Assembly: GCF_000020025.1 (NCBI RefSeq)
Contig: NC_010628.1
Span: forward strand, 6,810,001 to 6,842,000
Source of the DNA: Nostoc punctiforme PCC 73102
GTDB taxonomy: Bacteria > Cyanobacteriota > Cyanobacteriia > Cyanobacteriales > Nostocaceae
Length of the DNA: 32,000 nucleotides
Direction of reading: 5' to 3'
Each line of letters starts with the position of its first letter. Positions within the stretch are counted from its first letter, which is position 1. Of this stretch, positions 5,752-21,511 are shown one piece after another. A program made the translations under genes and the position numbers. The notes beneath the pieces were generated by a model that saw only the letters and a list, made by a program, of their open reading frames with translations, was not told the origin of the DNA and did no database searches.

Positions 5752-7242
5752 ATGACCACCGGATACATCCTCATCGCAGCAATTTTAATCTTGGGAGGCG
5801 TAATTGCAACCGTGGGCGATCGCATCGGCACACGAGTTGGCAAAGCCCGCCTCTCACTTTTTAAGCTTCGTCCGAAAAATACTGCCGTAGTGGTAACTAT
5901 TTTTACGGGCGGTTTGATTTCAGCATCAACATTAGGAATTTTATTCGCTGCCGATGAAGGTTTGCGAAAGGGAGTCTTTGAATTAGAAGATATTCAAACA
6001 GACCTCAGACAGAAGCGAGAACAGCTAAAAACCGCAGAAACTCAGAAAAGTCAGGTAGAAAGTGAGCTAAATCAAGCAAGAATTGCCCAAGCAAAAGCAC
6101 AACAAGACTTACAGGCAATTAATCAGTCTTTACAAGCAGCGAATGCCAAACAACTCCAAACACAAGCTCAGTTGAACCGCACCATTAGTCAACAAGCCCA
6201 AACTCAAACTCAACTCCAACGCACTCAAGGTCAGTTAGGACAAGTTGTAACTCAGTACCAAAAAGCCATAGCTGAGTTGCAAAGCGTTTCCAATCAAAGA
6301 AAAGAGCTACAGGCGGCAGTTGAACTACTGAAGACAGAACGACAACGACTGTACGCTGAAGCGAAAAAAGCGATTGACGAAGCCAAAACAGCTATTGAAA
6401 AACGCGATCGCGAACTGGCTAACCGTCAAGAAGCCATAGAACAACGCGATAAAAAAATTGGCCAACTCGATCAATTGATTCAAAAGCGTAATGTAGAAGT
6501 TGCAGCACGAGAGCAAGTGATTGCCAAACGGGAATCGCGCCTCAAAGAATTGGAAGCACAACAAGAGCAACTAGAACTGGAAGTTGCCAGGCTGGAAAAA
6601 TATTATCAGTCTTACCGCGACCTGCGTCTAGGTAAGCTGGCCTTAATTCGCGGTCAAGTTCTGTCTGCTGCTGTCATTCGTGTTACCCAACCTGCTGCTG
6701 CTCATCAGGCAGTGGTACAACTTTTACAAGAAGCAAATCGCAACGCCAACCTGGAATTAAGTGAGCCTGGGGCAAATCCTGCAAATGTAGAGCTACTGCG
6801 CGTGACTCAGGATAGGGTTGACCAATTGAGCAAGCAGATTAGCGATGGTCAAGAATATGTGGTGCGAATTTTCTCGGCTGGTAATTACGTCAGGGGAGAA
6901 AAACAGATAGAGTTTTTCGCCGATACAGCGCGAAATCAATTGGTTTTTTCAGGAGGTGCAGTGCTAGCAACAACTAGTGCCGATTCCAAAACCATGACAT
7001 CCTATCAGTTACAGCAACGGCTGGAAATACTAATTTCTGCTTCTCAATTTCGTGCCCGTAATGCCGGAATTGTCGAAAATGTGCAAGTAGACGGGACTTT
7101 CTTGCGCTTTGTCGCCCAATTAAGACAGTACAATCAACCCTTAGAAATCAAAGCGATCGCAGCAGAGGACACTTATACAGCCGGGCCATTGAGAGTAAAA
7201 TTAGTGGCAATAGTCAACGGAAAAATTATTTTTAGTACTTAA
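5752..7242 (+). CDS. Membrane-anchored coiled-coil protein, DUF3084-like
   Basis: Two N-terminal TM segments (ILIAAILILGGVIATVGDRIG...; VVVTIFTGGLISASTLGILFA), a long Q/A/E-rich coiled coil, then a globular C-terminus. The position immediately downstream of ntcA matches other Nostocales, from memory. Confidence 0.7.
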   Translation: MTTGYILIAAILILGGVIATVGDRIGTRVGKARLSLFKLRPKNTAVVVTIFTGGLISASTLGILFAADEGLRKGVFELEDIQTDLRQKREQLKTAETQKSQVESELNQARIAQAKAQQDLQAINQSLQAANAKQLQTQAQLNRTISQQAQTQTQLQRTQGQLGQVVTQYQKAIAELQSVSNQRKELQAAVELLKTERQRLYAEAKKAIDEAKTAIEKRDRELANRQEAIEQRDKKIGQLDQLIQKRNVEVAAREQVIAKRESRLKELEAQQEQLELEVARLEKYYQSYRDLRLGKLALIRGQVLSAAVIRVTQPAAAHQAVVQLLQEANRNANLELSEPGANPANVELLRVTQDRVDQLSKQISDGQEYVVRIFSAGNYVRGEKQIEFFADTARNQLVFSGGAVLATTSADSKTMTSYQLQQRLEILISASQFRARNAGIVENVQVDGTFLRFVAQLRQYNQPLEIKAIAAEDTYTAGPLRVKLVAIVNGKIIFST

Positions 7243-7920: not shown

Positions 7921-8187
7921 TTAAAGTTCCGCCCGAATAGTAAAAGCATAATCTCCTCCAGGCTCTAGCTGATAATCTTGTTGCTCCAAAAATCGACCAA
8001 GGGGTTCTTTGATTAAAGCGCGGCCTTGGGAAGGCTTGACGGCAAGTTCTCCCCGGCGAAAATGCCACTGGAAATGCCACTCAAACTCACCTGCACTCAC
8101 TTCACCCTCAAGGAAGCCGTGTTGCCAAGATTGGCGGGTGATTCTGACATGGGCAATGGTTTCTGGCAGTCGTCTTTTAGCACTCAC
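7921..8187 (-). CDS. Small hypothetical protein (88 aa)
   Basis: Clean ORF with normal composition, convergent with the resolvase-like gene. I recognise no motif with confidence. The overlapping plus-strand ORFs at 8009-8260 and 8026-8208 look spurious. Confidence 0.5.
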   Translation of the reverse strand: MSAKRRLPETIAHVRITRQSWQHGFLEGEVSAGEFEWHFQWHFRRGELAVKPSQGRALIKEPLGRFLEQQDYQLEPGGDYAFTIRAEL

Positions 8188-8495
8188 AATGCTTTATGTC
8201 AAGTGTAGAATAACAGCCGATCGTGTAGGCTTCTTATTTTATGTACCAAAAATAGCCTAAATAGACAAACTGACAAAGTGAGTATTTTTAGTTGAGTAAG
8301 AATGGTACTAATCGAGAATGCTGCATGTAAAATTTCAGTTAAAAGTGACTCAAGCCTCCTTAAGCTAAGCGTTTCGTGTCCATATAGCAAATCCTAAATC
8401 ATTTGTGATGGACAATATCCCCAGCTTCCTAAATAAGTCAGCGATCTATGACTTCAGTCTATGGGCATAGTGGTAAGTAGTGGAGATAGTTTTTA

Positions 8496-9257
8496 TTAAA
8501 GTTTTAGAAATAAGAGTATCCTAGAAACTGCATATCTAACGCTTCTTTCATCAGTATATTGTGGATTGATTGGGATTTCTTTGAAAGATTTCAGTACAAT
8601 TACAGCCCGATAAAGCTTAGAGTATTTATATTGCTTTTCTTGGATGTCAAAACACAGAATATTTTCTAGTGGATGTTCAATAACTTGATTGCCACGAAGA
8701 CTTTTACGTTCGATAAAGACCTTATCGATACTCTTATAGAAGGTGCAGGTAGTTACAGGTGATGTTGCAAAAAAAGCAGCGATCGCCATGATAATTAATA
8801 TAGATAAACTTAAGAAAAATAGATAGTTTCGCTGATTTTGCTGTACAAATAGCGAAGTTTTATTAGAGTTGATAAAATCGTTTGTTTTCAAGGTAAATTC
8901 TTGATTTTGTTCATAGCTAAGATGGGATAAAAGAGGAAAATCTTGAAATGGAGTCACAATTATAACCTGATAGCTTTTCGACCCTTTGCTGCCAGTCTTT
9001 GTGAGAATGTATGCTTCACTGGGATCAAACATTCTGAGTTTCTCCATCCTTCCCAGCAAATTAAACCGTCTCAATTCACAATTAATTTTGCTTGGCGAGA
9101 GGCGATCGCAATTGAGGCTAACTGAAGCAGACTCAAAAAATAAGCAGTAAATCAAGAAGCTTAAACAGACAGTAAAAATGCACCACCCAATGAACCAATA
9201 TCTGAGTGGCCGATGCTTTAGCTGCAATCTGGTACGGGTTTCCTCTACAATTTTCAT
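8496..9257 (-). CDS. Hypothetical two-TM membrane protein with apparent internal duplication
   Basis: 253 aa, AT-rich codon usage. Two hydrophobic helices (YWFIGWCIFTVCLSFLIYCLFF; YLFFLSLSILIIMAIAAFFA), each followed by an ~85-95 aa soluble segment of similar pattern. Confidence 0.5.
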   Translation of the reverse strand: MKIVEETRTRLQLKHRPLRYWFIGWCIFTVCLSFLIYCLFFESASVSLNCDRLSPSKINCELRRFNLLGRMEKLRMFDPSEAYILTKTGSKGSKSYQVIIVTPFQDFPLLSHLSYEQNQEFTLKTNDFINSNKTSLFVQQNQRNYLFFLSLSILIIMAIAAFFATSPVTTCTFYKSIDKVFIERKSLRGNQVIEHPLENILCFDIQEKQYKYSKLYRAVIVLKSFKEIPINPQYTDERSVRYAVSRILLFLKL

Positions 9258-9416
9258 CAGTGCTTGTGTATAGAATACTTAACCCCTGAGTAGAGTATTC
9301 CCTTAGTAGCCCATTCACTTATCACCAAATCTAAGTACTAGGGAGGATTTATGATAAATCGCTCAAAAAGCTTTGACTAGCTGGGATAATTGGGGCAGAA
9401 AGCTATAGCTAGAAGT

Positions 9417-10283
9417 ATGGAAACCAAACAGCTAGGAAAAACAGGTGTCATCGTAAGTGCGATCGGTTTGGGCGGTATGCCCATGTCAATCTCTAATCGC
9501 CCTCCCGAATCGCAATCAGTCGAAGTTATTCATCGGGCTTTGGATTTGGGTATTACATTTGTTGATACCGCCGATTCTTACTGCAAAGATGAGTCAGAAA
9601 AACACCACAACGAGCGACTAATTCATAAGGCACTTACTAGTTATAAAGGCGATGTTAGCCAAATAATTGTGGCAACTAAGGGCGGTTTGATGCGTCCCGA
9701 TGGCAACTGGACAAGCAACGGTAACCCAGAACATTTGCGCGAAACAATTCGAGTCAGTTTTGAGGCGTTAGGTGGTGCCAAACCCATCGATGTTTGGCAG
9801 TACCATTCGCCCGATAGTAAGTACACCATTGAAGAATCTCTTGCGCCAGTGAAAGAAGCAGTGGAGGCAGGTTTGATTAGGTTTGTGGGAGTTTCTAACT
9901 TTTCCGTTGAACAAATTAAGCGGGCGCAAGATGTAGTAGATATTGTCTCGGTGCAGAATCAATACAGTCCTTGGCAACGACAGCCAGAAAAGGACGGCGT
10001 ATTGAAGTATTGCGAACAGCAAGAATTGACGTTTTTGCCTTGGAGTCCCTTTGGTGGTAGACGTCGCCATCAAGATTTACAAGATATTCCAGCGATCGCT
10101 AACTTAGCTAAAGAAAAAGGCGTGTCAGTGTATAATATCGTTCTAGCGTGGTTACGCTCCAAATCGCCCGCTATTTTGCCAATTCCTGGTGCTAGCAAGG
10201 TTTACAGCATCGAAGACTCAGTACAAGCTATCAATGTGAAATTATCTGAAGAAGAAGTACAAAAAATTGATCGCGCAACTTAA
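9417..10283 (+). CDS. Aldo/keto reductase family oxidoreductase
   Basis: METKQLGKTGVIVSAIGLGGM..., FVDTADSY, HSPD, GVSNFS and IPGASK are typical AKR motifs. The ATG at 9417 is preferred over the track's TTG at 9390. Confidence 0.9.
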   Translation: METKQLGKTGVIVSAIGLGGMPMSISNRPPESQSVEVIHRALDLGITFVDTADSYCKDESEKHHNERLIHKALTSYKGDVSQIIVATKGGLMRPDGNWTSNGNPEHLRETIRVSFEALGGAKPIDVWQYHSPDSKYTIEESLAPVKEAVEAGLIRFVGVSNFSVEQIKRAQDVVDIVSVQNQYSPWQRQPEKDGVLKYCEQQELTFLPWSPFGGRRRHQDLQDIPAIANLAKEKGVSVYNIVLAWLRSKSPAILPIPGASKVYSIEDSVQAINVKLSEEEVQKIDRAT

Positions 10284-13656: not shown

Positions 13657-13772
13657 AATCCGTGTTTGGTTAAAAGGTTGCTAAAACTCAGGTTATAGCG
13701 CTTCTCGTTTCTATGCAATAGAGTCTGACCTCTATCTAAATCTCTCTTCTAGAAAGCTACGGTATTGCATAA

Positions 13773-13940
13773 GCATTGCAAGTTGATGCATAGGCATTGC
13801 AGGTTGATGCACTAGCATTGCAAGTCCATGCATTAGCATTGCAAGTCCATGCATTAGCATTGCAGGTCGACGCTTTAGCATTGCAGGTCGATGCACTAGC
13901 ATTGCAAGTCGATGCATTGGCATTACAGGTCAAGATGTGC
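13773..13940. repeat. Tandem repeat, 21-bp unit GCATTGCA(A/G)GT(C/T)(G/C)ATGCA(T/C)TA. Seven good copies plus one degenerate copy.
   Basis: Read directly. Units start at 13773, 13794, 13815, 13836, 13857, 13878 and 13899, with a degenerate unit at 13920. The array lies 117-284 nt upstream of the dhaK start codon. Confidence 0.9.
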
Positions 13941-14080: not shown

Positions 14081-14956
14081 TCAATCCAAAGATTCCATTA
14101 ACTCAATACACTTGTGCATCTGCTGGCGCATGGTTTCCTTATCAGCATGAAACCTTCGCCCATGACCTGGTAGCACCCACTCAAAAGAGTAATTAGCTAA
14201 GTTACGCATTGATTTAGTTTGTTCTGACCAAGAATACCAGCAGGCATTGTGGAATGCAGCCAGTTGATGCAAGCTTTCTGACCAAGCGAGATGGTCGCCA
14301 GTGAAGAGAAACTTATTTTTGTAGAGTAGGACAGTTTGTCCTTTAGTGTGACCGGGAACTGGAATAATTAAGAAATCTGGAGTCAAGGCAAATGGTTCGG
14401 AACCAGTTAGCTGTATTTCTACATTGCGAGTATCCGCAGTAATATCATCAGCATGAAGGATGCGATCGCACTGAAAATGCTCGGCAAACTTTTGATGATC
14501 TGCCACATCATCCTTATGAGTTAGGTACATATAACGAATCGACCCCAGTTCTTCTAAACGCTTGACTAAAGGCGGCGTAAACCGGGGAGAATCCACCAAA
14601 ATGTTACCTTCTGGAAGTTGAATTAAATAGCTAGCAGCACCATAAGATTTTTCAGAATGATAGCCGCAGTGGTAAATATTTTCTGTTACTAATATTGGAA
14701 AGCTTTGTTGAACAGTTTTGATATCTTTTGGCTTTTCAACTGTGCCAATGGAACTGGTAGGACAAGCTAAAAGTGCTTGCAGTGCAGCTAATCTTTCCGC
14801 CTCATTCGTTGGTTGATGATAAACAGCCGATTGATCGTCAACATCATAAAATACTTCAGGAGCCATCCAGCGACAGGTATCACAATCAATACAGGTAGTA
14901 TCTACATAAAAATCGCCGTTGACATTTTGAGAGCGACGCTGATTTAAATGAGCCAT
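14081..14956 (-). CDS. MBL-fold metallo-hydrolase with an N-terminal ferredoxin-like [4Fe-4S] domain
   Basis: The N-terminus has C-x2-C-x2-C ... CP (CIDCDTCRW...ACPTSS). The remainder has beta-lactamase-fold strings (YLTHKDDVADH, PGHTKGQ, TGDHL, LPGHG). Confidence 0.75.
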   Translation of the reverse strand: MAHLNQRRSQNVNGDFYVDTTCIDCDTCRWMAPEVFYDVDDQSAVYHQPTNEAERLAALQALLACPTSSIGTVEKPKDIKTVQQSFPILVTENIYHCGYHSEKSYGAASYLIQLPEGNILVDSPRFTPPLVKRLEELGSIRYMYLTHKDDVADHQKFAEHFQCDRILHADDITADTRNVEIQLTGSEPFALTPDFLIIPVPGHTKGQTVLLYKNKFLFTGDHLAWSESLHQLAAFHNACWYSWSEQTKSMRNLANYSFEWVLPGHGRRFHADKETMRQQMHKCIELMESLD

Positions 14957-15373
14957 ATTAATCCTTTTGCTTCCACCAGACGCTTACTGGGGAGCGATAA
15001 ACCTTATATCACTACGCTAGCAAAAGTTACTTGAGACTGTAGACACCACTAGAAGTAAATCCGCTCAAAAATATAAAGACTTGTGAAACCCAGTAAGCAG
15101 AAAATGGGAAAACTGAACATAGACACCATCTGCTTATTCCCAAATATACTTTACTGCTCTAATTCCAGTTGTTCAAATCCATTTAACTCTAATAACAAAT
15201 TGTTTATCTCCTGGGAACTAGATTAATGATTCGATTCTTCTCTGAGTAGTTCTCAATTGAAATGCCAGATTTTTATGTTTTTAACAAGAACAGCGGCAAA
15301 GGTGCAACAATATGGTCTTTACTTATGTGAAAATGAACTTAGTCAAAAATCATACTCTGGGTTGATCATCTAA

Positions 15374-16243
15374 ATGAGCAGTAATGATCAAATCAAAATT
15401 CTGTTTCTGGCAGCAGATCCCAGTAATGCTGCACGATTACGCTTGGGGCAAGAGTTGCGTGATATTCGTGAAAAACTGCAACTAGCAAAAGAGCGAGACA
15501 GATTTATTCTAGACTCCCGTGAATCTGTACGTCTGGGAGATATCAGCCAGGCTATATTCGATGTTGAACCGCAGATTGTGCATTTTTCTGGACATGGAAC
15601 CAGTACGGGTGAGCTTTGTTTTGAAGATTTACTAGGAGAATACCAACCTGTACAACCCGATGCTCTAGCAGCGTTATTTGAACTAGTAGCCGATCAAATA
15701 AATTGTGTGGTGTTGAATGCTTGCTATTCCGAAGCTCAAGCAAAAGCGATCGCACAACATATTTCTTTTGTCATTGGCATGAATAAAGAAATTGGAGATC
15801 AAGCCGCGATCGCTTTTGCTGTTGGTTTTTACAAAGCATTGGCAGCAAGGCGGACGATAGATCAAGCTTACAAGTTCGGTTGTGTCGAAATTAGATTGCA
15901 AGGCATTGCAGAACATTTGACTCCAGTTCTGTACACCAAACAAAACTCAGTGTCTCCAGTCTCAGAGGTACAGCAGATAGACTCCAACAAATCAACTGGA
16001 GTAACCAATGCACAGTCAACTAGTTTAAATCTGGGGCAAAGGCAGCGAATTTTACAGGAAATCGAAAGCCTCCAGCAACAGTATGATTTATTAAGTCAGA
16101 AATTGAGCCGCCTACGGTTGGATTTAGTGATAGAATCTGGCACTGTCATCAAGTTTCAGTTAGAAAAGCAGATTGAAAATGCTGAAGCTGAAAGAACACA
16201 ACTTACTCAAAGGATCGAGCAGCTAGAAAATAGCCTGCAATAA
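15374..16243 (+). CDS. Minimal CHAT/caspase-like cysteine protease domain plus a C-terminal helical adaptor module
   Basis: KILFLAADP...IVHFSGHG (His74 candidate, nt 15593-15595) and VVLNACYS (Cys117 candidate, nt 15722-15724) fit the caspase-fold His/Cys dyad arrangement of CHAT domains. Residues ~225-287 are a predicted helical hairpin homologous to the N-terminus of the next ORF. Confidence 0.75.
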   Translation: MSSNDQIKILFLAADPSNAARLRLGQELRDIREKLQLAKERDRFILDSRESVRLGDISQAIFDVEPQIVHFSGHGTSTGELCFEDLLGEYQPVQPDALAALFELVADQINCVVLNACYSEAQAKAIAQHISFVIGMNKEIGDQAAIAFAVGFYKALAARRTIDQAYKFGCVEIRLQGIAEHLTPVLYTKQNSVSPVSEVQQIDSNKSTGVTNAQSTSLNLGQRQRILQEIESLQQQYDLLSQKLSRLRLDLVIESGTVIKFQLEKQIENAEAERTQLTQRIEQLENSLQ

Positions 16244-16283
16244 AAATAGTAGTATCTCAATAGTTGGGTATCAAAACTCATAG

Positions 16284-17264
16284 ATGTCTTCAGTTCGGCA
16301 TTTACAGCAAAAACGGGAAGAACTTCAACAACACTACGATGCGTTTAGCGAGAAGATAAAGTTGTTGCGGAATCAACACGCCATTGAAGCGGGGGCTTCA
16401 GTAGCTTTTCAACTAGACAAAGAAATTGAGCGGGTTGAGAAAGAACGCGATCGCCTCCTGAAGCAGATTCAGATTCTTGAGAGGTCTTGCAAGAGTGAGC
16501 CAATACACAGTGAACTGTTTCGCCTCAACTACATAGCACAGGTACAGTTATTCCGAGAATTTATTACAGAAAAACGTATAGGAGCTTTCTTAGTTCATGG
16601 TTCGCCAGAATATGGTCAAATCTGGTTACTGAAGCGTTTGTTACAGAAAATTCCTGAAAGTACAGTGACTTCCCCAATCCCATTTCATCTCAAACGCAGG
16701 GCACTTAGGAGTGATATTGCAGCCCTATGGAGAGAGTTAGGCCGTCAGATCGGAGTACAAAATTTTTCATCCCATGAGGAGATTGCCAGGAATGTAGTAG
16801 CTCAATTAAAAACCCAACATATCATCCTAGTTTTTCACGATCTCGATTGCATTGATGAAACCTATCTGCACGAATTAATCCGTGATTTTTGGTTGCCCCT
16901 GGTAAACTCAACCCCACAGACAATTTGCTCAAGCAACGAATTTTTTCTACTGATGTTTTTGCTTGACCAAGATGGTTGTGTCAACACTTGGAATCTTGAG
17001 TTTGCAGATCGGTTCGATCTGGTATGGAAACCCCATATTCCCATTAGGCTACCAATGATTGACACTTTATCTGAGCAAGTCTTACTTAACTGGATGGAAA
17101 ATGCAATTGATGTTCTACCAATCCAGATGACTAAAAAAATTGACTATACAGTTCAGGTGATTTTAGAGAAGAGTGAAGGCATTCCAGAGCGTGTGTTTGC
17201 TGAAATTTTTGGTTTGTGTGGCTGTAACTGGCAGGAGGAAGAAACCCGGTGGTTAGAACTTTAG
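16284..17264 (+). CDS. Helical adaptor module plus a degenerate (probably non-hydrolysing) P-loop NTPase-like domain
   Basis: Residues 5-68 align with the C-terminus of the upstream CHAT protein. The Walker A position reads GSPEYGQI instead of G-x4-GK[ST] (nt 16599-16622). A Walker B-like IILVFHDLD is retained. Confidence 0.55.
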   Translation: MSSVRHLQQKREELQQHYDAFSEKIKLLRNQHAIEAGASVAFQLDKEIERVEKERDRLLKQIQILERSCKSEPIHSELFRLNYIAQVQLFREFITEKRIGAFLVHGSPEYGQIWLLKRLLQKIPESTVTSPIPFHLKRRALRSDIAALWRELGRQIGVQNFSSHEEIARNVVAQLKTQHIILVFHDLDCIDETYLHELIRDFWLPLVNSTPQTICSSNEFFLLMFLLDQDGCVNTWNLEFADRFDLVWKPHIPIRLPMIDTLSEQVLLNWMENAIDVLPIQMTKKIDYTVQVILEKSEGIPERVFAEIFGLCGCNWQEEETRWLEL

Positions 17265-18206
17265 ACGGAAAGCGGCTGAAATATATAGGTAAGGTTCAAC
17301 CCCAGCCAGGAGAGCAAGACCCGGAGACGGGTCAAATCTTGTATCCTTACCTGCCGAGTGAGAAATTGGTAGAGGCTGTGAATTTAGCGATCGCCCTCGA
17401 ACGCCCCTTACTATTAAAGGGAGAACCAGGATGCGGCAAGACAAAATTGGCTCGTGCTGTGGCTTATGAGTTGGGTTTACCCTATGAAGCTTGGTACATC
17501 AAATCTACCAGTCGAGCGCGGGATGGTCTTTATACTTATGATGCCGTTGGCAGGTTGCGGGATGCTCAACTTGCTGCCTCCAAAATAGATGAAGAAGCCG
17601 CAATCAAAGCAAAAAATGCTGATGACTACGTAGAGTGGGGACCGTTAGGACGTGCCTTTCGCAATGAGCAGCCAACTGTAGTTTTAATTGATGAAATAGA
17701 TAAAGCTGACATTGACTTTCCTAACGATCTGCTGTTAGAGCTTGATGAGCAAAGGTTTGAAGTCACAGAAGTAAAACAAAACAGTCCGCTCAAGAAAATT
17801 CAGGCGAAAGCAACACCAATTGTTTTGATCACTAGTAACGATGAGAAAGAAAGACTTGCCTGATGCTTTCTTACGTCGTTGTTTATTTCACTATGTTAAA
17901 TTCCCTGAACGTCAGCAATTAATTGATATTGTCAAAACTCGGTTTTCGGTTTCGCCTTTGGAATTGGTGGACGCAATTATTGACCGCTTTTTAGAACTGC
18001 GTGAAGAGATGCGGCGAGATAAGGGCGAAGCTGGTAAAAAGGTCAGTACCAGCGAACTGATGGATTGGGTGCGGATTCTTAATCATCAAGATGATGAAAT
18101 TCTCAGCAAGTTAAAAACAGAACTCTTGTATCCTGGGGTGTTGCTGAAGAGTTGGGATGATTACCGCCGCTATGGTGAACAGATGCGATCGCAGCCAGAA
18201 GTATGA
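17249..18206 (+). pseudogene. MoxR-type AAA+ ATPase (CoxD/AAA_5-like), reading frame interrupted at 17845-17863
   Basis: The first ORF (17249-17863, GTG start) carries Walker A GEPGCGKT, Walker B VVLIDEIDKAD and sensor-1 ITSN. The second ORF (17841-18206, +1 frame) continues with DLPDAFLRRCLFHYVKFP, the arginine-finger region. Together they make one ~317-aa MoxR. The stop overlaps the vWA start (ATGA). Confidence 0.9.
17845..17853 (+). other. Frameshift site in the MoxR gene: apparent 4-nt tandem duplication (GAAA GAAA)
   Basis: As written, GAT GAG AAA GAA AGA CTT GCC TGA reads DEKERLA-stop. Deleting one GAAA gives GAT GAG AAA GAC TTG CCT GAT GCT TTC, reading DEKDLPDAF, which is continuous with the downstream ORF. 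Confidence 0.7.
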
Positions 18207-19327
18207 AAATAGAAGCTCTCCACGAAGAACTACCACTGCTTGAGCTTTTTACACAACTGCGCGAGGCAGGTTTACCCTTGGGTATCGATGAATACCGCCT
18301 TGTTTTGACAGCTTTACAAGAAGGCTTTGGCACGACTGACCAAGAAGCGTTAGCAGAACTGTGCCGTACCTTGTGGGTAAAATCCCAGGATGAAGAACAC
18401 CTCTTCAACTATCACTTTCAACAAGTAATAACAGAACCTTATCCTGTAAGACCTTTTGTCAGGAAGGAAGAAGAGAAAACATCTTCCAGAATGCAAGAAG
18501 CGGTAGAAAGTGACGATAATTATTCACCTGATTTGCTCAATACAACACCGACCACTGTACCCGTTTCATCGGAATTAATGGAAGTACAGGATGAGATGCA
18601 AGTGGCTGAAGCAGTACAGATTACTACTCAAAAAAATGAGGAAATTACTGTTAATCGCTTTACCGAAACCGATGAGTATTTTCCAGTGACGCGGCGACAG
18701 ATGAAACAAAGCTGGCGGCATTTACGCCGAATGGTACGCCAAGGTTTGCCCACAAAGTTAGACATAGAGGCAACTATTGAGCAATTGGTACGGCAGGGGG
18801 TTTTGCTAGAGCCTGTACTGATGCCCAGTCGGGTAAATAGAACTGAACTACTTTTGCTGATTGATCATAAGGGATCGATGGTTCCCTTTCACGCACTATC
18901 CCAGCGATTAGCCCAGACAGCATTACGAGGCGGACGCTTAGGAAAAGCTAGTATTTACTACTTTCACAATTGCCCAACCAAGTATCTTTACCATGACCAG
19001 ACGCGCCAAAAAGCCGAACCTGTCACAGATTTTCTAGCTCAGTTGCGCCCAGACCGTTCCGCTGTATTAATTTTTAGTGATGGGGGTGCAGCACGCGGCG
19101 GTTTTAGTCTGGAACGGCTGGAGTTAACCCAAAAATTTTTAGACCAGTTGAAACAGCGATCGCGTTATATTGCATGGCTGAATCCAATGGCAACAGAGCG
19201 CTGGTTTGGCACAACAGCAGGAGAAATTGTCCGTTTAGTGCCGATGTTTGAAGTTAGCCGACAGGGTTTTGATGGTGCGATCGATGTGTTGCAGGGTCGG
19301 GGGATCAATGCACAATTAAGGTACTGA
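18203..19327 (+). CDS. vWA domain protein, CoxE-like
   Basis: The N-terminal LLELFTQLREAGLPLGIDEY...AL resembles the CoxE N-region. The C-terminal vWA has ELLLLIDHKGSM (MIDAS position) and AVLIFSDGGA. Translationally coupled to the MoxR gene by a 4-nt overlap. Confidence 0.85.
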   Translation: MKIEALHEELPLLELFTQLREAGLPLGIDEYRLVLTALQEGFGTTDQEALAELCRTLWVKSQDEEHLFNYHFQQVITEPYPVRPFVRKEEEKTSSRMQEAVESDDNYSPDLLNTTPTTVPVSSELMEVQDEMQVAEAVQITTQKNEEITVNRFTETDEYFPVTRRQMKQSWRHLRRMVRQGLPTKLDIEATIEQLVRQGVLLEPVLMPSRVNRTELLLLIDHKGSMVPFHALSQRLAQTALRGGRLGKASIYYFHNCPTKYLYHDQTRQKAEPVTDFLAQLRPDRSAVLIFSDGGAARGGFSLERLELTQKFLDQLKQRSRYIAWLNPMATERWFGTTAGEIVRLVPMFEVSRQGFDGAIDVLQGRGINAQLRY

Positions 19328-19367
19328 CTGTAATCAATTTAACTCGGAGTATTTTAAGGGTAGAGGT

Positions 19368-20936
19368 ATGAAGCCAGAAGTTGCTAGTCGTAGAATTGAG
19401 TCTTTTGGTCAACGCTTTGGGGAAACGCACCTCTACCTGGCTTACCATGCTGCTTTTCCGTTAGCCCTCACACCAGATTTGCTTTACCGCTTGTGGGCCA
19501 ATTTTCAACAAGATATTAATCATGAAGTACTAAATATCCCTTGGATGGCTGTGGCTGATTTACTACTTTCTAGCCTTTGTGATGAGGTGGGACATGAACT
19601 CTATGAGATGGATACAGCAGTACGAAATGCTTTGTTGAAAGAGTTGAGGGAGAATCCTCGTTTTGGCGAAAAGCGGATTAATGAATTGTCTGATTTTTTG
19701 CTTACCTATGTACGGCAACAACTTGATAGCTACGACCCGGATATTCGTGATTTTGCTCAGGCTCAGAAGTGGACAGCGTTAGCCTATACGCGACCAAGTG
19801 AGGCAGCGAGGGATTTAGCATCAGTTCTTGCAAGGTTGAAGTTAGAGGAAAAGGCAGAGTGGGTTCGTATGGCATTGCTGGTGGAAACTTTTGCAGAGCC
19901 ATTAGCAGAATTCCAACCTCTACTAATTTATGCTCGTGGGATGGCAAACTTTGTCTGTGGTTATCAAGAACGTGCGACAACAGAGATTACAGGGTTACTA
20001 GCAAACCAGGAGCCTCAATTACAGATTGCAGGAGTAAACCTGCCAATTCCTGAACAGATAGCTAATTCTTTTGAGGAAGTTAGGTCTATTAATCAGTTCT
20101 CAACTAACTTGACTTCTTCACAATTACCCAGTACTGTTCGCATTTTAGCTGTGGATGATGTAGCAGATAATCTCATCCTAATCCAAACAGTTTTAGAAAG
20201 TGAGGGGTATCAGATAGATTTAGCAGCAGATGGTACAACAGCTTTATCATTAGTTAAAGAATCTCCACCTGATTTAATTATCCTAGATGTAAAAATGCCA
20301 GAAATGGACGGTTATGAGGTTACACGCCGCATCCGCAATAACCATAATCTTCCCTACATTCCGATTCTACTCATCTCAGCATATTTTGAAGCTAGTGTTG
20401 TACAAGGCTTAGATATTGGAGCAAACGATTTTATTCGTAAACCTATTGATGTAGATGAGCTACTAGCAAGGGTGCGCTCGTTGTTGCGGCTAAAAAAAAT
20501 GATTGGTAAAAGTGACAAAATCGAGGATACAGTTGAGTCTACTTTCTACAATATACAAAACAATCCTCTTAGCAATCCGCTTTTTATTAGTACTTATAAT
20601 AATGAAATCAAAGATATTAAAGTTAAGGTTAGACTCTACAATCTAGCAAAAGAACTCAATGTAGACAGCCGAGATATAATGACAATATGTAAGTCTCTTG
20701 GAATTGAAGTCAAAAGCCATAGCAGCACTATTTCTAACACAGATGTTCAGCGAATTCGTGCTGCTTTTAGCAACTATTTGAAAGCTTTTGCACAATCTTT
20801 TCCTACTGAACCTATTACAGAAACAGAAACCCTAAAGGATTCACTCATCTCTCAAAATGGATTAAATTGCTCTCTGTTAGGTGAGCTTCTTACAATAAAA
20901 AATGGCAAGAAGCTGATCAAGAAACCGCACGATTAA
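19368..20936 (+). CDS. Multidomain protein: unknown N-terminal helical domain (~aa 1-235), receiver (REC) domain (aa ~257-377), IF2 N-terminal-like domain (aa ~417-467)
   Basis: REC: ILAVDDVADN, DLIILDVKMPEMDG (Asp307), ILLISA, FIRKP. IF2_N-like: VKVRLYNLAKELNVDSRDIMTICKSLGIEVKSHSSTISNTDVQRIRAAF, very close to the extreme N-terminus of cyanobacterial IF-2 as I recall it. The last ~15 residues look like frame-shifted read-through. Confidence 0.85.
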   Translation: MKPEVASRRIESFGQRFGETHLYLAYHAAFPLALTPDLLYRLWANFQQDINHEVLNIPWMAVADLLLSSLCDEVGHELYEMDTAVRNALLKELRENPRFGEKRINELSDFLLTYVRQQLDSYDPDIRDFAQAQKWTALAYTRPSEAARDLASVLARLKLEEKAEWVRMALLVETFAEPLAEFQPLLIYARGMANFVCGYQERATTEITGLLANQEPQLQIAGVNLPIPEQIANSFEEVRSINQFSTNLTSSQLPSTVRILAVDDVADNLILIQTVLESEGYQIDLAADGTTALSLVKESPPDLIILDVKMPEMDGYEVTRRIRNNHNLPYIPILLISAYFEASVVQGLDIGANDFIRKPIDVDELLARVRSLLRLKKMIGKSDKIEDTVESTFYNIQNNPLSNPLFISTYNNEIKDIKVKVRLYNLAKELNVDSRDIMTICKSLGIEVKSHSSTISNTDVQRIRAAFSNYLKAFAQSFPTEPITETETLKDSLISQNGLNCSLLGELLTIKNGKKLIKKPHD

Positions 20937-21343
20937 TTATTTCGATTGCTGCCGCAGAGAGACAAGGTTGGCTTGGTGTAGAGGAGTTGAAAAATTTTTC
21001 CTGTCAAAATTTACGAACAATTGATCAGCTTTGGGTAAAATACAGTAATGGGAATTTTGGTTTTAGTGTGCAGCAAACTATATGGGAAAGTATTGGATTC
21101 GCTAACAACGTTAGAGACTATTCTATGTGGTGGAATTTTGGTAATCTCGTAGGATGGCGTGTAAAAGATAGATGGCTACCCTACGAACGAATACAATTTA
21201 CAGCCCAAGCTCCCAAAGGACATCTGCCATTTTTTAGAGCATGGATAGGAATGAGAAAAACAGGGCTTGTACATTCAATGCATCAAGTCAATCGTTTTCA
21301 TGCATTTATGTATAGGTGCGCGTTTTGTCACCTGACTCAATAA
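20885..21343 (+). pseudogene. GUN4-like domain reading frame, out-of-frame continuation of the preceding ORF (-1 frame). No credible start codon of its own.
   Basis: The frame opens after the TGA at 20882-20884 and reads ASYNKKWQEADQETARLIISIAAAERQGWLGVEELKNFSCQNLRTIDQLWVKYSNGNFGFSVQ...GWRV...APKGHLPF. This is the typical GUN4-like domain with its upstream W-x-EAD-x-ET helix. The track ORF starts only at a TTG (20987), in the middle of the homologous region. Confidence 0.8.
20897..20903 (+). other. A AAA AAT heptamer at the junction of the REC/IF2_N frame and the GUN4 frame
   Basis: In the upstream frame the codons are ATA AAA AAT GGC. The GUN4 frame reads AAT AAA AAA TGG. One extra A, or a -1 slip on A AAA AAT, joins ...LLGELLTIK to WQEADQET... 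Confidence 0.7.
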
Positions 21344-21465
21344 TAGTTACTATCCTTACAACTAAATAAAAAACAACTCGCTGGTAGGGCTAAAACTGCT
21401 TATGTGGAAAATTTTATAATTTATAGAAAAATAAAAATTGTTGATTTTTGAATATATTTGAAAAT

Positions 21466-21496
21466 GCGATCGCGCCCCTTTACCAAACGCGATCGC
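21466..21496 (-). terminator. Hairpin formed by two HIP1 copies (GCGATCGCG ... CGCGATCGC) downstream of ctaB
   Basis: 9-bp arms at 21466-21474 and 21488-21496 with a 13-nt loop. On the minus strand it is followed by TTTTC (plus strand gAAAA at 21461-21464). It lies 16 nt after the ctaB stop. Confidence 0.4.
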
Positions 21497-21511
21497 TAAA
21501 TTTTCCATCCC

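Follow-up and report, generated by a model that had tools for sequence, protein, structure and literature searches.

In the filamentous cyanobacterium Nostoc punctiforme PCC 73102, two adjacent genes encode a caspase-like peptidase and an NTPase-like scaffold protein that carry the same small helical domain, one at its C-terminus and the other at its N-terminus. The stretch analyzed here, referred to as the window, comprises 32,000 nucleotides of contig NC_010628.1 (positions 6,810,001 to 6,842,000 of the forward strand). Its open reading frame (ORF) ORF1 encodes a short CHAT peptidase and ORF2 an inactive STAND (iSTAND) protein, followed by genes for a MoxR-type AAA+ ATPase, a vWA co-chaperone and a fourth protein. 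Judged from their sequences, the two modules are paralogous copies of one all-α adaptor domain of approximately 65 residues, which is classified as a divergent member of the effector-associated domain (EAD) family EAD9. The most probable role of the two hairpins is to dock the peptidase onto the iSTAND scaffold; we give this reading a probability of about 0.72, and within it we infer the binding itself, its stoichiometry, the substrates of the peptidase and a role in defense.

Both proteins have recognizable bodies behind or in front of the shared module. ORF1 matches the Pfam family CHAT with residues 27–165 (E 1.4e-7) and the ‘chat’ model of PADLOC with residues 6–175 (E 7e-20). The caspase-type dyad motifs are present (His74 in SGHG and Cys117 in NAC) and kept in the homologues P0074, P0147, P0127 and P0160, and the peptidase is apparently active. 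A linker of about 35 residues, rich in S, T, Q and N, separates it from the module. ORF2 starts 40 bp downstream of ORF1 and matches Pfam iSTAND with residues 78–226 (E 2.9e-37). An AlphaFold2 (AF2) model built on 39 orthologues, with a mean predicted local distance difference test score (pLDDT) of 75, places a predicted α/β body behind the N-terminal module, and the Foldseek neighbours of this body include ORC/Cdc6, RFC, plant NB-ARC resistosomes and the Dark apoptosome, including Dark/Dronc complexes. The P-loop position reads HGSPEYGQIWLL and lacks GK[ST] at Walker A, which agrees with the definition of an ‘inactive STAND’. A preliminary description, made from the DNA sequence alone, had already called ORF2 an NTPase-like scaffold, and the family match and the predicted fold bear this out. 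The scaffold-side module occupies the N-terminal position in all 39 aligned iSTAND orthologues.

The similarity of the two modules is extensive and requires no gaps. Aligning ORF1 residues 225–289 with ORF2 residues 6–70 yields 28 identities in 65 positions, and BLASTP with compositional adjustment aligns the ORF1 C-terminus and the ORF2 N-terminus over 62 positions (28 identities, 45%; 65% positives; no gaps; E 3e-15). The preliminary description had located the shared segment exactly, since its positions 16046 and 16487 are the first base of ORF1 residue 225 and the last base of ORF2 residue 68, corresponding to ORF1 225–287 and ORF2 5–68, and its count of 21 identities over the last 49 positions was reproduced. 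The single-residue gap that it had introduced is needless: with ORF1 residue n set against ORF2 residue n-219 throughout, seven of the 14 positions before these 49 are identical, which makes 28 of 63 in total. The central core that it had pointed out (I-E-x-G ... F-Q-L-x-K-x-I-E ... E-x-E-R) is present in both copies and conserved in the homologues.

Several controls address how much of this similarity is due to composition. The Smith-Waterman score of the module pair is 133, compared with 30.9 +/- 5.6 in 5000 plain shuffles and 36.9 +/- 7.2 in 5000 shuffles that preserve the heptad pattern; the observed value thus lies about 13–18 standard deviations above both, and the highest score among all 10,000 shuffles was 71. 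The comparison of profiles that had been suggested as a check was made with hhalign, using 38 scaffold-side and 32 partner-side modules, and it remains significant when coiled-coil bias is controlled: the two profiles align over all 71 columns with a probability of 99.8% (E 1.9e-29, score 138), whereas the score falls to 10.8 +/- 2.5 when columns are shuffled and to 13.6 +/- 2.9 when the shuffling preserves the heptads, with no control above 20.3. The DNA of the two segments is identical at 47% of positions. Second codon positions agree in 62–66% and third positions in 24–25% of cases, the latter being the random level, and where the amino acids are the same, third positions have an identity of 0.32. 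Since third positions are random, the similarity is kept at the protein level, as expected for old paralogues under selection, and a recent duplication or gene conversion is rejected for the pair in the window.

Structure prediction and family searches point to a two-helix hairpin of the EAD9 type. In the AF2 model of ORF2, a helix spanning residues 2–34 is followed by a three-residue turn (E-A-G, residues 35–37) and a second helix from residue 38 onwards, with pLDDT values of 89–94 for residues 11–60; the helix-turn-helix hairpin anticipated from the sequence is therefore what the model predicts. Both modules of P0106, a natural double-module protein of 195 amino acids, are likewise modelled as hairpins with pLDDT above 90. 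The module alignment shows no catalytic motif. EAD9 (PF19962) is the top Pfam family for both modules of the window, which means that the analogy to bacterial effector-associated domains, drawn in the preliminary description, refers to a family and a concept already in the literature (Kaur et al., 2020; PMC7159879). Generic coiled-coil families (APG6_N, CC149, CENP-F and others) were considered and rejected, as they score below EAD9 and far under their own cut-offs. Nor is the Death-fold superfamily (CARD, DD, DED and PYD, as well as bDLD1/EAD3) supported, because the model has two helices and not six and Pfam returns EAD9 rather than EAD3 or a Death-like family.

A word-indexed protein search with the two-sequence module alignment returned only seven close relatives, and an exhaustive profile search was therefore used, in which a module profile built from 34 sequences was compared with 1.84 billion representative proteins. 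It retrieved 824 proteins at E<=1e-3 and 214 at E<=1e-10. Pfam assigns EAD9 to 40 of the best 150 matches (best E 8.8e-8), more than any other family, followed by iSTAND (16), CHAT (8), TIR (7), nSTAND1 and EAD7 (6 each), EAD10 and NACHT (5 each), and SIR2_2 and NB-ARC (3 each). A list of EAD9 members was not found in the supplement of Kaur et al., and membership was therefore tested via homologues that are Pfam-positive. In P0192, an NB-ARC/TPR protein, the module profile matches residues 1–65 (E 2.1e-12) and Pfam EAD9 residues 5–64 (28.5 bits, passing the cut-off), i.e. nearly the same span. BLASTP aligns the EAD9 domain of P0192 without gaps to the ORF2 module (38% identity, E 2e-12) and to the ORF1 module (38%, E 1e-10). 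Taken at the level of sequence, the module is thus a divergent EAD9 member, and neither a new fold family nor a generic coiled coil. It is also found outside the iSTAND context: P0064 (720 amino acids) carries four tandem modules behind a ParA/MinD-like ATPase, P0106 has its two modules in one small protein, and P0174 (759 amino acids) has the module at the C-terminus of a SNF2-family helicase.

The pair recurs in related loci. A genome scan with the iSTAND alignment identified 80 cyanobacterial loci, mostly from Nostocales and some from Leptolyngbya-like taxa, and the module hidden Markov model (HMM) was run over all ORFs of the related loci. The scaffold-side module was found in almost every one of them, and a second full-length module is encoded in a neighbouring gene in 51 of the 82 related loci. 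The heads attached to this second copy, all confirmed by Pfam, are CHAT in 27 loci, a Peptidase_C14 caspase in 18, TIR in three and a zinc ribbon with four cysteines in two; in Nostoc sp. KVJ20 the partner combines CHAT, TRADD-like-N and the module. The preliminary description had proposed looking for the module on other effectors, and Peptidase_C14, TIR, SIR2 and CHAT proteins carry it. On CHAT partners it is either C-terminal, as in the window, or N-terminal in genes encoded divergently or downstream. In P0163 (968 amino acids) module, iSTAND and CHAT are found on one chain, and P0195 unites TIR, module and a STAND NTPase. The same association thus appears to be reached either by fusing a head to iSTAND or by pairing modules.

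On average, cognate scaffold and partner modules also resemble each other more closely than non-cognate ones. In 47 non-redundant loci their mean identity is 0.42 compared with 0.36, a difference not corrected for phylogeny, and none of 10,000 permutations reached the observed mean; the distance matrices of scaffold-side and partner-side modules correlate with r = 0.62. Some loci share unusual turns between both copies, such as ERTDLSP.ERFRLKKQIE in L085 and L083, ETDVAVKLKLD in L075 and KRFRQDLAIEAS.DVKFKLEN in L029.

Instead of joining the two proteins, the hairpins could act as self-association elements, i.e. as coiled-coil oligomerization domains through which each protein homo-oligomerizes, for proximity activation of CHAT or for the formation of iSTAND rings, without any docking. 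The module has an amphipathic sequence similar to that of a coiled coil, and weak scores are obtained with many generic coiled-coil Pfam families. Proteins with two to four copies in tandem (P0106 and P0064), the existence of stand-alone copies of 58–110 amino acids and the failure to find a partner module within flanks of about 7 kb in several loci would also suit this explanation. However, at 51 loci a neighbouring gene encodes a second copy, and the heads to which it is attached are of four unrelated types, which would be difficult to account for if the two proteins did not have to meet. In addition, iSTAND and CHAT are parts of a single chain in some proteins (P0163), and the mean identity is higher between cognate than between non-cognate copies. 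We therefore consider self-association without docking unlikely.

A pair of amyloid or prion-like signaling motifs of the HET-s/NWD2 or bacterial BASS type, in which the N-terminus of an NLR protein templates a matching effector C-terminus encoded next door, would have an identical gene geometry, since there, too, neighbouring genes encode the C-terminus of an effector and the N-terminus of a STAND-like protein, and a preprint describes such motifs in filamentous bacteria (bioRxiv 10.1101/2020.01.06.895854). The module, however, has about 65 residues, is rich in E, K, R and Q, is predicted with confidence to form two long helices (pLDDT 89–97) and lacks a G/N-rich beta-arch pattern, and its top family is the all-alpha EAD9, which makes an amyloid pair very improbable. 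Still less credible is a chance or compositional likeness of generic coiled coils, or a functionless remnant of a local duplication: coiled coils often align spuriously and adjacent genes would fit a duplication, but heptad-preserving shuffles never came near the observed score, the contrast between random third and conserved second codon positions indicates an old divergence under purifying selection, and the module pair is conserved across Nostocales and Leptolyngbya-type cyanobacteria.

The docking of the peptidase onto the iSTAND scaffold, which the preliminary description had put forward, remains the preferred explanation, and a number of observations weigh against it. The first group concerns the family assignment. 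The EAD9 HMM scores 17.8 bits (E 0.0028) on the ORF1 C-terminal segment, and on the ORF2 N-terminal segment 23.9 bits (E 3.6e-5) when this is searched alone and 18.6 bits in the full protein, all of them under the Pfam gathering cut-off of 25. Only 7 of the 39 iSTAND orthologues match EAD9 at E<0.01, and none of 55 iSTAND homologues carries an EAD9 annotation in the precomputed Pfam fields; the Pfam EAD9 model under-detects the iSTAND-associated copies in Nostocales. The second group concerns the pairing itself. The AF2 model of P0106 has a predicted template modelling score of 0.38, so that the mutual arrangement of its two hairpins is not settled by the model. By identity to the scaffold copy, the cognate partner of the window ranks only 15th of 47, and the cognate excess in identity is confounded by shared ancestry. 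Moreover, synonymous-site identity between the copies is 0.71 in L029 and 0.64 in L085, compared with 0.32 in the window. Part of the closeness of adjacent copies therefore reflects re-duplication or gene conversion and not amino-acid co-evolution. Finally, the MoxR gene of the window is frameshifted, and experimental work on EAD9 was not found among the 10 of 18 literature matches listed; in a separate keyword search, the only relevant works were those of Kaur et al. of 2020 and 2021 (eLife).

The two genes are embedded in a compact gene cluster (Table 1). The start of the MoxR gene overlaps the end of ORF2 by 16 bp, the vWA gene overlaps MoxR by 4 bp, and the fourth gene starts 40 bp after vWA; terminator-like sites were not found within 14900–21500. 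ORF1, ORF2, MoxR and vWA are assigned to one operon. Gene order is kept in about 75 of the 82 related loci, with vWA conserved in 75 and the MoxR and vWA genes in 74–80 of them. By its gene content, the locus is one of the MoxR-vWA ternary conflict systems whose third component is an iSTAND protein (Kaur et al., 2020; PMC7159879). PADLOC recognizes only the CHAT protein, in addition to weak AAA+ similarities, and the locus is not a catalogued defense system there. Membership in the MADS systems was rejected, because the NCBIfam MadB and MadC matches of MoxR and vWA are far under the cut-offs (58.7 versus 475 and 21.3 versus 600 bits).

Table 1. Features of the module pair and of the surrounding operon in the window.
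Feature	Coordinates	Strand	Basis
Degenerate relic of the 4-Cys-prefix zinc-ribbon ORF upstream of ORF1	15146..15198	+	blastn to L005
ORF1, 289 aa: short CHAT (caspase-like) peptidase, S/T/Q/N-rich linker and C-terminal hairpin module	15374..16243	+	ORF list, Pfam, PADLOC
Effector-side EAD9-like helical-hairpin module (predicted), ORF1 residues 222-289	16037..16240	+	module HMM, 87.8 bits
ORF2, 326 aa: N-terminal hairpin module and inactive STAND (iSTAND) NTPase-like body	16284..17264	+	Pfam iSTAND, AF2, Foldseek
Scaffold-side EAD9-like helical-hairpin module (predicted), ORF2 residues 1-71	16284..16496	+	module HMM, 113.4 bits
MoxR-type AAA+ ATPase gene, split by a frameshift into ORFs of 204 aa and 121 aa	17249..18206	+	Pfam AAA_5, AAA; tblastn with the intact 318-aa L005 orthologue spans both frames
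4-bp tandem duplication (AGAA AGAA) causing the MoxR frameshift	17844..17851	+	DNA alignment with L005 and L007 (single AGAA)
vWA (CoxE-like) co-chaperone, 374 aa	18203..19327	+	Pfam VWA_CoxE, E 1.6e-12
Fourth gene, 522 aa: conserved unannotated N-terminal domain (residues 1-250) and variable C-terminus, here REC and IF2_N-like	19368..20936	+	loci comparison, Pfam

The frameshift in MoxR falls between sensor-1 and the arginine-finger region. The same split is found in four independent SRA assemblies and is therefore real and not a sequencing error, and the orthologues of L005 and L007 are intact. The system may consequently be inactive in this strain, as its MoxR is broken, and the gene could be a pseudogene, or the duplication a site that is prone to slippage and switches it on and off. 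In related Nostoc loci (L008, L009, L010, L037, L040 and L041), many of them from metagenome-assembled genomes of lichen-associated Nostoc, the iSTAND, MoxR or vWA genes are often truncated or split, which points to repeated loss of the function of the system or to errors in the assemblies.

The fourth gene adds a further conserved element. Its N-terminal domain of about 250 amino acids (19368–20120 in the window) directly follows vWA in 74 of the 82 related loci, has no match in Pfam or NCBIfam and was not found described in the text of Kaur et al. 2020. In relatives, its C-terminal extensions are CHAT, CHAT with AAA_35, pentapeptide repeats, four PG_binding_1 repeats or CHASE2. From this arrangement, the domain looks like a constant adaptor that presents variable effectors.

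Taken together with the proposed docking of the peptidase onto the iSTAND scaffold, these components suggest a most likely course of action, which follows Kaur et al. (2020). The two hairpins would associate, probably into a bundle of four helices or into a larger assembly, and their pairing would recruit the CHAT peptidase to a complex of iSTAND, MoxR and vWA. The vWA/MoxR pair would supply ATP-dependent remodelling as a threshold. Sensing of an invader and MoxR-driven remodelling would be coupled to proteolytic signaling or to effector release by the recruited peptidase. A candidate for the effector is the protein of the fourth gene with its variable C-terminus.

Comparison with close relatives suggests that heads can be exchanged at the module boundary. 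In the syntenic locus L005 of another Nostoc, the iSTAND protein is 93% identical, and the upstream gene encodes a 36-residue zinc ribbon with four cysteines, joined to a module that is 95% identical to that of ORF1. By blastn, L005 aligns to the window at 14950–15198 (L005 7809–8053, 89%) and at 16061–16287 (93%), and approximately 860 bp encoding CHAT and the linker are missing from it; the breakpoint lies at ORF1 residue 230, close to the start of the module. The relic upstream of ORF1 translates to ILYCSNSSCSNPFNSNNKLF, followed by a stop, and the intact L005 version, MLYCCNTSCSNPFNPDDNKFCIKCGQ, is fused to the module. Intact zinc ribbons in frame with an EAD9-like module, with CHAT absent, are found at 8001–8288 of L005 and at 6890–7183 of L011. 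They represent a natural head swap or possibly a headless decoy. In P0004 from Tolypothrix sp. NIES-4075, an iSTAND-type module is fused directly to the N-terminal domain of the fourth gene. L023 encodes at 8395–9729 a protein of 444 amino acids that combines this domain with a CHAT fragment and the module, followed by an iSTAND N-terminal fragment of 58 amino acids (9763–9939). These chimeras suggest recombination between the repeated modules of tandem systems.

A wider proposal, which we regard as doubtful, is that the hairpin carries a readable specificity code. In such a scheme, the turn residues (AIEAG...FQLEK, IETD...FKLDK, ERTDLSP.ERFRLKK and ETDVAVKLKLD) would co-vary between scaffold and partner and thereby insulate paralogous iSTAND systems within one genome, heads would be swapped by recombination at the module boundary, and the fourth gene would contribute, with its N-terminal domain, another constant adaptor that has so far not been described.

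Two further features of the window lie outside the pair. A 21-bp tandem repeat at 13766–13931 (7.9 copies, 85% matches, consensus TGCATTAGCATTGCAAGTCGA) is located between a Dak1-like gene and a ferredoxin-domain gene and yields spurious repetitive ORFs on both strands. For the ORF at 20987–21343 (118 amino acids, TTG start), the match to the GUN4 profile is confined to positions 51–133 of 141, in the C-terminal part of the profile, and a shorter version of 72 amino acids is called in the SRA assemblies; the ORF may be a truncated GUN4-like gene.

For the recruitment of caspase-type proteases by apoptosis-like immune systems of bacteria, EAD coupling is a central prediction, and no experimental test of it was found in the literature searched. 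The family described here offers a compact test case, with a hairpin pair of 65 residues, natural head swaps in close relatives and loci whose divergent, co-varying turns could serve for specificity swaps. Beyond this value, the finding adds one more locus to a described class.

EADs were proposed as homotypic adaptors by Kaur, Burroughs, Iyer and Aravind (2020; eLife 9:e52696, PMC7159879), and the module corresponds to this concept: it is a small, non-enzymatic, all-alpha domain with one copy at the terminus of an iSTAND protein and a second on a peptidase or nucleotide-utilizing head next door. It is part of a core component (residues 1–71 of the iSTAND protein), it is fused to an effector (the copy on CHAT, 40 bp upstream in the window, and the partners in 51 loci), and heads are directly fused to the core or STAND chain in P0163 and P0195. 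The same study counts EAD9 as one of the EADs that ‘primarily recruit the signaling components’, and the partners with CHAT, caspase and TIR heads are consistent with such a role. It differs from EAD9 as catalogued in that the copies of the window and most Nostocales orthologues score under the Pfam cut-off and in that the position of the module on CHAT flips between the C- and the N-terminus. With the iSTAND-MoxR-vWA ternary systems of Kaur et al. (2020), the locus shares an EAD at the N-terminus of iSTAND, a MoxR that lacks long extensions, a vWA of the CoxE type, a multicellular cyanobacterial host and variable effector domains. In contrast to those systems, the variable domains are in this clade mostly found on a separate fourth protein and not at the vWA C-terminus, and the MoxR gene of the window is frameshifted.

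The logic of the pair is also that of CARD-CARD recruitment, in which caspase-9 or Dronc is brought to Apaf-1 or Dark, namely that a protease of the caspase fold and a scaffold of the STAND type carry small helical domains that match. The resemblance is one of logic only, as the module is a predicted two-helix hairpin and not a six-helix Death fold, the NTPase of the scaffold is predicted to be inactive, and energy would come from a separate MoxR AAA+ protein. HET-s/NWD2 and BASS pairs likewise share a short sequence between an effector C-terminus and an NLR N-terminus in adjacent genes, but their motifs are shorter beta-arch amyloids, whereas the module of the window is predicted to be helical. 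The module pairing is a correct, independent re-derivation of the published EAD concept, with EAD9 copies that have diverged so far that Pfam does not annotate them.

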